From assembly GCF_024700885.2 (NCBI RefSeq), contig NZ_CP117016.1: a stretch of 64,000 nt of DNA. One strand, written 5' to 3'. This DNA comes from Escherichia coli. GTDB taxonomy: Bacteria; Pseudomonadota; Gammaproteobacteria; Enterobacterales; Enterobacteriaceae. The stretch's first letter is position 1. Every line of letters starts with the position of its first letter. Positions 2,643 through 34,519 of the stretch are shown here, piece after piece. The notes beneath the pieces are model-generated. The model was not told the DNA's origin and ran no database searches. It saw only the letters and a program-made list of their open reading frames with translations. The position numbers and the translations under genes are program-made.

Positions 2643-3647
2643 CTACTGAGTCGCGCGTAACATATTCCCTTGCACTGGTTCACCATTCTGCGCTGACTCT
2701 ACTGAAGGCGCATTGCTGGCTGCGGGAGTTGCTCCACTGCTCACCGAAACCGGATACCCTGCCCGACGATACAACGCTTTATCGACTAATTTCTGATCTA
2801 CACCCTTATTGTCTTTAAATTGCGTAAAGCCTGCTGGCAGTGTGTATGGCATTGTCTGAACGTTCTGCTGTTCTTCTGCCGATAGTGGTCGATGTACTTC
2901 AACATAACGCATCCCGTTCGGTTCCACGGAATATTTCACCGGTTCGTTGATCACTTTCACCGGCGTTCCCGTCCGCACGCTGGAGAACAAGGCTTTAATA
3001 TCCGGCGCATTCATGCGAATACAGCCCGAACTGACGCGCAAACCGACGCTGTCCGGCGCACTGGTGCCATGAATGAGGTATTCGCCATTACCATGCGCGA
3101 GGCGCAGTGCGTAACGTCCTAGTGGGTTATTTGGCCCGGCAGGAACGACTGGCGGTAATTTAATGCCACGCTCCAGCGAACGCTGACGAATGCCCGCCGT
3201 AGGCGTCCAGGTTGGGTTAGGGATTTTCTGCCCCACACGCGTTTCCATCACTGGCGTTTCCAGCCCCTGCAAACCAATACCTATCGGATAGACCTGCACG
3301 ATATTTTCTCCCGGCGGATAATAATAAAGGCGCAGCTCTGCAAGGTTAACGATAATCCCCTGACGCGGCGCATCAGGTAATAACAGTTGCGAAGGAATAG
3401 TTATCGTCGTACCAGGTTTTGGCACCGGGGCGATAGTGTTATTGGCTTCAAGGATCAACATTGCCGCAGTATCAAAACGACGGGCAATAGCCTGAAGGTT
3501 TTTATCCCCTTCTTGCACCGTATACGTTTGATTTTGCCCAACCAGTCGGCTTCCGGTTGGAGGTAGCGGATAATCAACCGCCCAGGCAGCCTGGATGGCG
3601 CTAAAAGCGCCGATAAGCGTGAGTGTAAGCAAAGACGCGCGTTTCAT
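2643..3647 (-). CDS. ldtE: L,D-transpeptidase (YkuD domain)
   Basis: 334-aa ORF with signal peptide and a C-terminal LD-transpeptidase catalytic region (HGT...SSGCIRM); K-12 synteny (ynhG/ldtE next to the suf operon). Confidence 0.88.
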
Positions 3648-3795
3648 TGTAAACCTCCTGTATTTGCCGGAGACTCACGCTGAAACGTCGGATGGTACTT
3701 ATGTTCACCTGAAACCAAAACACTCCTGTGCAGGTCAGTGTAAACATTGACCATCCGGCAATGTGAGCCAACCGGATGAAAGCTGTCCCTTTAGT

Positions 3796-8939: not shown

Positions 8940-9308
8940 CTATACCCCAAAGCTTTCGCCACAGCCACATTCATTCTGGGCTTTAGGGTTGTGAAATTTG
9001 AATATCTGATTAAGTCCTTCACGAACGAAATCGACTTCCGTGCCATCAATAAACGGCATCGCTTGCAGCGGGACAAACAGCTTCGCGCCATCGTGTTCAA
9101 ACAGCAGATCGTCTTTGTCCGGCTCGCTAACACTGTCGAGCACATAGCCAAAGCCCGCGCAGCCCGTTTGCTTCACGCCTAAGCGCACGCCGACCATACC
9201 CGGCTGCTTTGCCACCAGCTCGCGGATGTGGACAGCGGCTGCGGGTGTCAGCGTTAAGCCCTGCCAGGCGAAATCCTGTGGATTAAAGGTTCCTGAATGC
9301 ATGTCCAT
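8940..9308 (-). CDS. sufA: Fe-S cluster A-type carrier SufA
   Basis: 122-aa ORF with the C-terminal CGCGESF motif of A-type carriers. Confidence 0.9.
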
Positions 9309-9354
9309 CGATTTACCTCACTTTATCGCTTTCAGCGTATAACAGCATGTTAGT

Positions 9355-9367
9355 GATAATGATTATC
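9355..9367. promoter_or_regulatory. Fur-box-like site GATAATGATTATC in the suf promoter region
   Basis: Close to the Fur consensus GATAATGATAATCATTATC, directly upstream of sufA; the suf operon is known to be Fur-repressed. Confidence 0.5.
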
Positions 9368-9487
9368 AGTTCAACCCAGCAAACGCAGGGGCTTTACCGT
9401 AAAACATGCTTTTTTCCTGCTTTTAATAAGCATAGACCCTGATGTGTGGGTTAACAGGCACGCTAAGAATTAGGTATCTCATTGTTA

Positions 9488-9503
9488 GATAATGATTATT
9501 ATC
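9488..9503. promoter_or_regulatory. second Fur-box-like AT-rich palindrome GATAATGATTATTATC
   Basis: Sequence pattern only. Confidence 0.3.
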
Positions 9504-9842
9504 TAAGGAGCATTAAGGCTGTGATGAAAAAGAAAAAGTTGTATTGAAAATGACTATTTAAGAGATAGGTAAAAAAGTGCAGCGTTCAGAAATAAGAAAA
9601 CCCTAAGTCTGTGCGACACAGGCTTAAGGGTTTCTACCCCATCCGGCGCTTATCTCCGGCACTCTCAGTGGCTTAGCTCTTGAAGGGGCGATAAGAATAA
9701 TCTCATAAAGCTAACCCGCCGTTTTAACACAAACTGCGATTAGTATTATTTTTGAACAATATCAGGCGGGTAGATAAGCACATCGAACCTGGACGGAGGT
9801 TAATCCAGGTCGATTTGGCGAAATTACGGCATTAAGTCAGGA

Positions 9843-10031
9843 TCAATGCACGCCCAGACGCCAGGCAAAGTAGATTTCTTCTTTTAATTCAGCAGAAGAG
9901 AGAGTAAGCAGGTCAGCAAATTCAAGTTCTAGTTGTTTCAGACGTTTGAGATATTGGGCAGGTGAAAGATTGCTCTGGTCACGGCGTAAAAATTCAATGG
10001 CCAGCTGGGTGGGATCAAGTTGAGTAGACAT
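9843..10031 (-). CDS. ydiH: small conserved protein YdiH
   Basis: 62-aa product from the internal start MSTQLDPTQ; K-12 synteny. Confidence 0.7.
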   Translation of the reverse strand: MSTQLDPTQLAIEFLRRDQSNLSPAQYLKRLKQLELEFADLLTLSSAELKEEIYFAWRLGVH

Positions 10032-15280: not shown

Positions 15281-15386
15281 ACGGTTATAAATCAACATAT
15301 TGATTTATAAGCATGGAAATCCCCTGAGTGAAACAACGAATTGCTGTGTGTAGTCTTTGCCCATCTCCCACGATGGGCTTTTTTTT
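15281..15386 (+). ncRNA. rprA: RprA small regulatory RNA (activator of rpoS translation)
   Basis: Matches the recalled RprA sequence ACGGUUAUAAAUCAACAUAUUGAUUUAUAAGCAUGGAAAUCCCCUGAGUGAAACAACGAAUUGCUGUGUGUAGUCUUUGCCCAUCUCCCACGAUGGGCUUUUUUU, including its terminator; lies between ydiK and ydiL as in K-12. Confidence 0.9.
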
Positions 15387-15523
15387 AACATTTTTCCGCT
15401 TCGCTACCTCGCCCCTCACGCTTTCCAATAATGTTGCACAAGATACTGTGACTCTCTTCAAGCCGTCAGCAGGCTGATAATGTTATTTATATTTTATTGT
15501 TTATTTCATGCAGCCATTACACG

Positions 15524-34424: not shown

Positions 34425-34519
34425 CGCAACTTGTTGTCTTCTCAACAAATTACTGCTTGCTCTGGCCGCCATAATATTGATAATAAGAATCATTGTTATA
34501 TCAATTATTATTAATTTTT

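Follow-up and report, generated by a model that had tools for sequence, protein, structure and literature searches.

The promoter of the Escherichia coli sufABCDSE operon is known to carry sites for Fur, IscR, IHF and OxyR (Outten 2004; Lee 2004, 2008; Yeo 2006; Mettert and Kiley 2014). The OxyR site is located far upstream of the sufA promoter, and activation of suf by OxyR depends on IHF (PMC8593673). The small RNA RydB (b4430; RF00118; tpe7; IS082) is established from the literature as a discrete, expressed RNA of K-12; it is classed as Hfq-independent, its gene is listed at 105 nt in Salmonella, and RepRanger associates rydB with a Rho-independent terminator. In the E. coli strain studied here, rydB occupies the same locus and strand as in K-12, with the same sequence, promoter, presumed terminator and flanks; apart from a 1-nt deletion in the terminator stem and a 13-nt deletion upstream of the gene, we found no substantive difference. 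The suf -10 and -35 elements, the Fur box, the mapped IscR positions and an upstream conserved block are likewise identical or nearly identical to those of K-12. The interval between the two flanking genes is thus made of two already known, co-directional minus-strand units, rydB and the suf promoter, and holds nothing new.

The stretch of DNA analysed, hereafter the window, is 64 kb long, and the interval in question spans positions 9309-9842 (534 bp). Open reading frames and annotations identify it as the intergenic region between sufA and ydiH. It is matched in 5421 of 5426 complete E. coli genomes, is 100% identical in strain 1190 and shares 98% identity with K-12. All the genes around it (sufB, sufA, ydiH, menI and ydiJ) lie on the minus strand. 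On one side, sufA (8940..9308, minus strand, 122 aa) is the first gene of sufABCDSE, as supported by its open reading frame and by its annotation in K-12 and strain 1190. On the other, ydiH (9843..10031, minus strand, 62 aa), annotated in the same two genomes, is the last gene of the ydiJ-menI-ydiH operon, whose transcription start site (TSS) was mapped at K-12 1768914/5 (PMC6131387). Relative to K-12, the interval lacks 1 nt at about 9604 and 13 nt at about 9781, has one additional G and differs by a few substitutions; over 9309-9600, five single-base differences were counted, of which four are substitutions and the fifth is the 1-nt deletion. The 13 nt of K-12 that are missing here (GTATTAAGAAGGT, plus strand) are absent at about 9781/9782, some 90 bp upstream of the rydB start and immediately 3' of a second stem-loop. 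This second stem-loop, AUCGACCUGGA...UCCAGGUUCGAU (9783..9814, minus strand), is positioned directly past the ydiH stop codon and has no U-tract. It folds at -19.8 kcal/mol (z -3.6) and probably forms the structure at the 3' end of the ydiJ-menI-ydiH transcript.

The suf promoter could be positioned from published K-12 data. The single TSS listed for sufA, at K-12 position 1764418 on the reverse strand (PMC6131387 supplement), was determined by SMRT-Cappable-seq and maps to window position 9340 on the minus strand, which leaves a 31-nt 5' untranslated region (9339..9309). The numbering derived from this start site was cross-checked against published mutations: the triplet ATA is indeed found at 9366..9364, the place of the -26ATA-24 mutation, and position 9390, which corresponds to -50C, holds a C. 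Sequence and start site together define the core promoter at 9347..9374 (minus strand), with the -10 element TAACAT at 9352..9347 and the -35 element TTGAAC at 9374..9369; both elements are nearly invariant in 19 Escherichia and Citrobacter sequences. The earlier note had read this segment as the suf promoter region, and the mapped start site, core promoter and regulatory mutations bear it out.

Searching the 64 kb for the 7-1-7 Fur pattern TGATAATNATTATCA with at most 2 mismatches returned 3 matches where 0.19 were expected, at 9354-9368, 9487-9501 and 34478-34492. The first of these, TGATAATGATTATCA (9354..9368, -14 to -28), is located between the -35 and -10 elements and overlaps the first base of the latter. 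It matches the 7-1-7 pattern at 15 of 15 positions and the 19-bp consensus at 16 of 19, the best score in the window, and it hardly varies across genera. Inside it lies the triplet changed in the published Fur-site mutation, -26ATA-24 (PMC12594620). This proximal box is the validated Fur operator of the suf promoter. The match at 9487-9501 is the core of a second, distal palindrome, TTAGATAATGATTATTATCTAA (9484..9506, -147 to -161), which overlaps the presumed IHF site and is considered below. The third match, TGATAATAAGAATCA (34478-34492), has 2 mismatches, scores 15 of 19 on the long consensus and is situated in the aroH-ydiE intergenic region, a short distance upstream of ydiE, which we take to encode a HemP-like protein reported to belong to the Fur regulon.

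The region of the IscR type 2 activator site extends over 9375..9396 on the minus strand (about -35 to -56), its 3' boundary being presumably the one given by Yeo et al. 2006. Published IscR-site mutations, a deletion of -56 to -51 and the -50C to G substitution, map to 9396..9390 within it (PMC12594620). Further upstream, the alignment of intergenic regions revealed a conserved block, CCTATCTCTTAAATAGTCATTTTCAATACAACTTTT (9534..9576, minus strand), which fits the far-upstream OxyR site. We assume, after Lee et al. 2004, that OxyR occupies positions -236 to -197 and IHF positions -156 to -127.

The identity of the second unit was determined by an Rfam scan of the whole window, which placed RF00118 (rydB) on the minus strand at 9629-9689. 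The match covers the full model (positions 1-61 of 61), and its 81.6 bits (E 9e-18) exceed the gathering score of 50. Elsewhere in the window, RprA was matched over its full length on the plus strand at 15281-15388, with 118.5 bits. The K-12 annotation of rydB (1764713..1764780, minus strand) maps to 9634..9701 with identical sequence, and the gene is located between sufA and ydiH on the strand that they share, as expected of its ortholog. The earlier note had suggested that K-12 carries rydB in this interval and had proposed to check this by alignment to the K-12 annotation, by a covariance-model search and by inspection of transcript maps. All three confirm the suggestion: the aligned sequence is identical, the full covariance model is matched, and the K-12 maps described next place a start site and two RNA forms inside the interval. 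PGAP-annotated E. coli genomes show no feature for rydB, including one that is identical to the window.

In K-12, differential RNA-seq assigned a class I TSS of rydB to position 1762793/4 (v2 numbering), which maps to window position 9690/9691, and listed two species with this common 5' end, 104 nt and 64 nt long (PMC4681348 supplement). The 104-nt species (1762690-1762794) has its 3' end at about 9588 in our numbering, inside a U-tract, and the 64-nt species ends at about 9627 (PMC4681348 supplement). Term-seq data place the dominant 3' end at K-12 position 1764708, which is window position 9629, under three conditions, with scores of 2.2 and 4.1 million compared with 0.18 and 0.08 million for the lpp terminator, a more than tenfold excess (PMC7815308 supplement). 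Over K-12 1764400-1764999, which extends from sufA to the ydiH stop codon, no 3' end other than that of rydB was listed on either strand, and none was called in the U-tract (PMC7815308 supplement). The 3' end near 9588 thus comes from one RNA-seq study, and Term-seq gives only 9629. Taken together, the literature and our mapping show for K-12 RydB a primary transcript of about 104 nt running from 9691 to about 9588, and a mature RydB of about 63 nt at 9629..9691 (minus strand), for which the Rfam match, the identity with K-12, the dRNA-seq start site and the Term-seq 3' end agree. These ends are offset from the 68-nt K-12 annotation: the mapped TSS is about 10 nt inside the annotated 5' end, and the abundant RNA ends 5 nt outside the annotated 3' end. 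RydB folds into a closing helix and two internal hairpins, and this fold is conserved. Among the matches listed, all 12 pairs of the body are 98.6-100% paired in 24 syntenic sequences, in which one closing-helix pair changes from CG to UA.

The sequence TGaGATTAT (TGAGATTAT; 9705..9697, minus strand), 6 nt upstream of the mapped start site, has the composition and spacing of an extended -10 promoter, and we infer that rydB is transcribed from it. Copies from Escherichia, Citrobacter and Pantoea have it in the form TGAGAnnAT, and no other sequence upstream of the start site is conserved. No recognisable -35 element of rydB was found, and the sequence further upstream is not conserved.

RydB-like sequences are not confined to the suf locus. 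One genome per species was scanned for the RydB core GCCGGAGATAAGCGCCGG, which gave at least 120 loci; about a quarter of the loci listed are chance matches in unrelated phyla and the remainder belong to Enterobacterales. Copies in unrelated genomic contexts were found in Pantoea, Erwinia, Rouxiella, Serratia, Kosakonia, Atlantibacter, Sodalis and others, often at least two per genome, and every one tested scores at or above the Rfam gathering threshold for rydB. Loci of this kind include L011, L016, L021/L022, L029/L030, L034/L035, L036/L037, L045/L046, L056/L057, L062/L063, L075/L076 and L084, among others. Two sub-types, CAAGAGCTAAGCC and ACAGAGCTAACGCC, could be recognised, in both of which the loops hardly vary while the closing helix covaries freely. 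Inspection by eye showed wide covariation of this helix in the non-syntenic copies (GCCCC/GGGGC, TCCCT/AGGGA, ATCCTT/AAGGAT). With a strict detector, 55 of the 101 listed copies elsewhere have a hairpin followed by a T-run downstream in the sense orientation, compared with 10 in the antisense orientation and 5 in an upstream control. These downstream hairpins comprise 33 distinct stem sequences.

Several of the loci differ in their surroundings. In Citrobacter sp. R56 and its relatives (L014, L067 and L103), another long hairpin, GCGAACGGTCAGCG...CGCTGACCGTTCGC, which lacks an adjacent T-run, stands in place of the usual hairpin after rydB, and the rydB-sufA spacer is about 100-140 bp longer. 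In Citrobacter braakii (L058) and in L118, rydB and the sufA start are 1.9-2.3 kb apart, compared with about 0.4 kb usually, which indicates that an insertion separates rydB from the suf promoter. A conserved block of about 60 nt, CAGAAAAGCGCATCGGCTACTTACCTCCTCG...GAGGGAGTACAGCAAAGGTTGTCGG, follows the copies of the Sodalis/Acerihabitans type (L007, L041, L042, L084 at 3590-3660, L089 and L116); it matched no Rfam family, even with a permissive E-value threshold.

The long imperfect inverted repeat that the earlier note had placed at about 9597-9640 is a real hairpin, and its extent is 9598..9633. It shares the strand of RydB and directly follows the body of the RNA on the 3' side, starting at the end of the annotated gene, and it is followed on the minus strand by UUUUCUUAUUU. 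The stem of 16-17 bp, about half G+C, contains one C.A mismatch, which is also present in K-12, and a strain-specific 1-nt bulge; the underlying deletion is common to only 30 of 5420 E. coli genomes. Compared with shuffled sequences, the fold is significantly more stable on either strand: the minus strand reaches -21.1 kcal/mol (z -2.8; K-12 -24.9, z -4.4) and the plus strand -21.5 kcal/mol (z -4.7; K-12 -26.2, z -6.8). A G.U pair takes the place of the C.A mismatch on the plus strand, which gives this strand a small advantage in energy. Neither the repeat search nor the promoter/terminator consensus scan detected the hairpin, which direct folding did detect; the mismatch and the strain-specific bulge account for its escape from the consensus scans. 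Immediately past the stem, the U-tract UUUUCUUAUUUCU (9588..9600, minus strand) forms the tail of the putative terminator and contains the 3' end of the 104-nt RydB.

The hairpin is kept with paired substitutions in the sufA- or ydiH-linked copies of Escherichia, Citrobacter, Silvania and relatives. Each of the 24 syntenic sequences among the matches listed has its T-run on the RydB-sense side. Pair counting over 24 sequences showed that 6 of the 17 pairs change on both sides, as when CTTAAG/CTTAAG becomes CTCAAG/CTTGAG (L120) or when a UA pair becomes CG in 10 sequences (columns 81/93). Paired cells reach 93.6%, compared with 26-57% when the register is slid, and none of 500 shuffles reached the observed values of covariation score, percentage of paired cells or cells changed on both sides. 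Some wobble pairs exist in the RydB sense only: G.U pairs at the stem base in 16 of 24 sequences, and U.G/G.U pairs in Silvania. The region combines a stable stem-loop, an immediate U-tract and pairing maintained with strand asymmetry, and RydB-like copies elsewhere have unrelated hairpins with T-runs at the corresponding place; a terminator would be expected to show this pattern, an operator or a separate RNA would not. We consider it very probable that the hairpin is the intrinsic terminator of rydB and is afterwards trimmed off, with the suf elements working as published. Like canonical enterobacterial sRNA terminators, this one has a stem-loop with a sense U-tract, conserved pairing and a short transcription unit; unlike them, its stem is unusually long (17 bp), relatively AU-rich and interrupted by a mismatch.

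The earlier note had suggested that the hairpin may itself be a small RNA. It could be such an RNA or a part of one, possibly read from the plus strand under control of the distal Fur-like site, as the greater stability of the plus-strand fold and the presence just upstream, on that strand, of the palindrome and of an SD-like AAGGAG with an ORF of 7-8 codons would allow. Yet the dRNA-seq list has no plus-strand TSS over K-12 (v2) 1755407-1767001 (PMC4681348 supplement), Term-seq has no plus-strand 3' end at the locus (PMC7815308 supplement), and our promoter scan found no promoter-like plus-strand site upstream of the hairpin. Past the stem, the plus strand reads GGGTTTCTACCCC, with no T-run, and the G.U pairs of the stem base turn into A.C mismatches. 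The ORF and its SD are missing in other Escherichia such as L025. A small RNA made from the hairpin is therefore exceedingly improbable: the RydB body adjoins it at 9629-9691, and the mature RNA, with its 3' end at 9629, does not include it. It might also be asked whether the inverted repeat acts at the DNA level, where a dimeric regulator of suf or rydB could bind it as a palindromic operator, since it contains a strongly conserved, perfect palindrome of the CCCTTAAGGG type and the suf upstream regulatory region is only 12 bp away. What is preserved at the variable positions, however, is pairing and not sequence, as the substitutions in L120 and at the UA pair illustrate. The loop varies from 3 to at least 9 nt, so that half-site spacing would vary too, and the T-run is always on one side only. 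Moreover, unrelated hairpins stand at the same place in non-orthologous RydB copies, and genomes of the Citrobacter sp. R56 type have a different hairpin instead. We regard an operator here as very improbable.

A third question concerns the short RydB, which could arise without processing if RNA polymerase terminated or was released at about 9629, the hairpin then only catching read-through. The Term-seq profile would agree with this, as 9629 is by far the dominant 3' end and is classed as primary, with none called at the U-tract. However, a 104-nt species with the same 5' end has been recorded (PMC4681348 supplement), and Term-seq reports steady-state ends rather than nascent ones. Nothing terminator-like precedes 9629, where the closing helix is followed by UAGAAACC with no U-tract. 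The short form ends five bases into the 5' arm of the hairpin and seven past the closing helix; trimming by 3' exonucleases typically leaves a 3' end of this kind, 7 nt past a stable helix. Direct termination at 9629 is thus unlikely, and we infer that the short RydB arises by processing. For suf, it may be asked whether the distal palindrome is a real second Fur operator, for instance one that competes with IHF and thereby dampens OxyR-dependent activation when iron is plentiful, which would be compatible with our reading of all the other features. It has 2 mismatches over the 14 specified positions of a pattern expected 0.19 times per 64 kb, its score of 14 of 19 on the long consensus places it among 8 window positions at 14 or more, and E. 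coli, E. albertii and further members of the genus Escherichia have retained it. A minus-strand promoter-like sequence, ATCACA-16-GATAAT (9525..9498), has its -10 inside the palindrome. Against this, the proximal box is conserved beyond Escherichia and the distal one is not; the distal site is also far from the core promoter, with one sufA TSS listed, and lacks the conservation and promoter position expected of a functional operator. The K-12 allele, with G at 9495, is weaker (3 mismatches, 13 of 19), the A found here being one step closer to the consensus. The suf promoter has been treated as having a single Fur site, mutated to remove Fur control (PMC12594620). AT-rich tracts are in any case expected beside IHF cores: at the aligned place, Citrobacter has AATCAATGCATTG, an exact IHF consensus, and in E. 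coli the consensus WATCAANNNNTTR has only 2-mismatch matches over 9464-9526. From the sequence comparison, the distal palindrome most likely belongs to the AT-rich surroundings of the IHF site, and we hold a role as second Fur operator to be rather improbable. The earlier note was right that two Fur-box-like palindromes are present and that suf is under Fur control, but only the proximal one is a proven operator, the distal one being at most a candidate. In a more specific form, the Escherichia site would be a Fur operator placed over the IHF site, where Fe-Fur and IHF compete and where the rare A at 9495 strengthens the site. We judge this form unlikely; if it were true, OxyR-dependent activation of suf would be conditional on iron status.

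Some other candidate features were set aside. The plus-strand mini-ORF MMKKKKLY (9506-9547, AAGGAG followed by GTGATGAAAAAGAAAAAGTTGTATTGA) is unconserved within Escherichia, has no listed plus-strand TSS and is probably due to chance. Promoter-like matches at 9724-9752 (plus strand) and 9525..9498 (minus strand) were treated as chance as well, 2 being found where 1.2 were expected. The hairpin is not a REP-like repeated element, as it occurs once per genome.

Returning to the hairpin as rydB terminator, the following course of events can be proposed. RNA polymerase would start at 9690/9691 from the extended -10 and transcribe the structured RydB body to about 9629. Termination at the hairpin (9633..9598) and along the U-tract to about 9588 would yield the primary RNA of about 104 nt. 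Removal of the stem-loop, probably by an endonucleolytic cut followed by 3' trimming to the closing helix of RydB, would then give the very abundant form of about 63 nt. The end of the U-tract and the OxyR region are separated by 12 bp, and rydB and suf are co-directional. Given the strong expression of rydB and its orientation towards the suf control region at this short distance, the terminator may also act as an insulator, keeping both rydB transcription and read-through from ydiJ-menI-ydiH off the OxyR, IHF, IscR and Fur sites and off sufABCDSE. The suf promoter itself works as published: Fe-Fur bound to the perfect box at -14 to -28 blocks RNA polymerase, apo-IscR activates from about -35 to -56, and OxyR activates from its far-upstream site through IHF-induced bending, presumably near -130 to -160.

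Hfq-dependent small RNAs keep their terminator as an Hfq-binding module, whereas the abundant RydB has lost its own. If the hairpin is, as is very probable, the terminator of rydB, this long structure between rydB and suf needs no new explanation, and the regulatory elements of the region are placed at single-base resolution in this strain.
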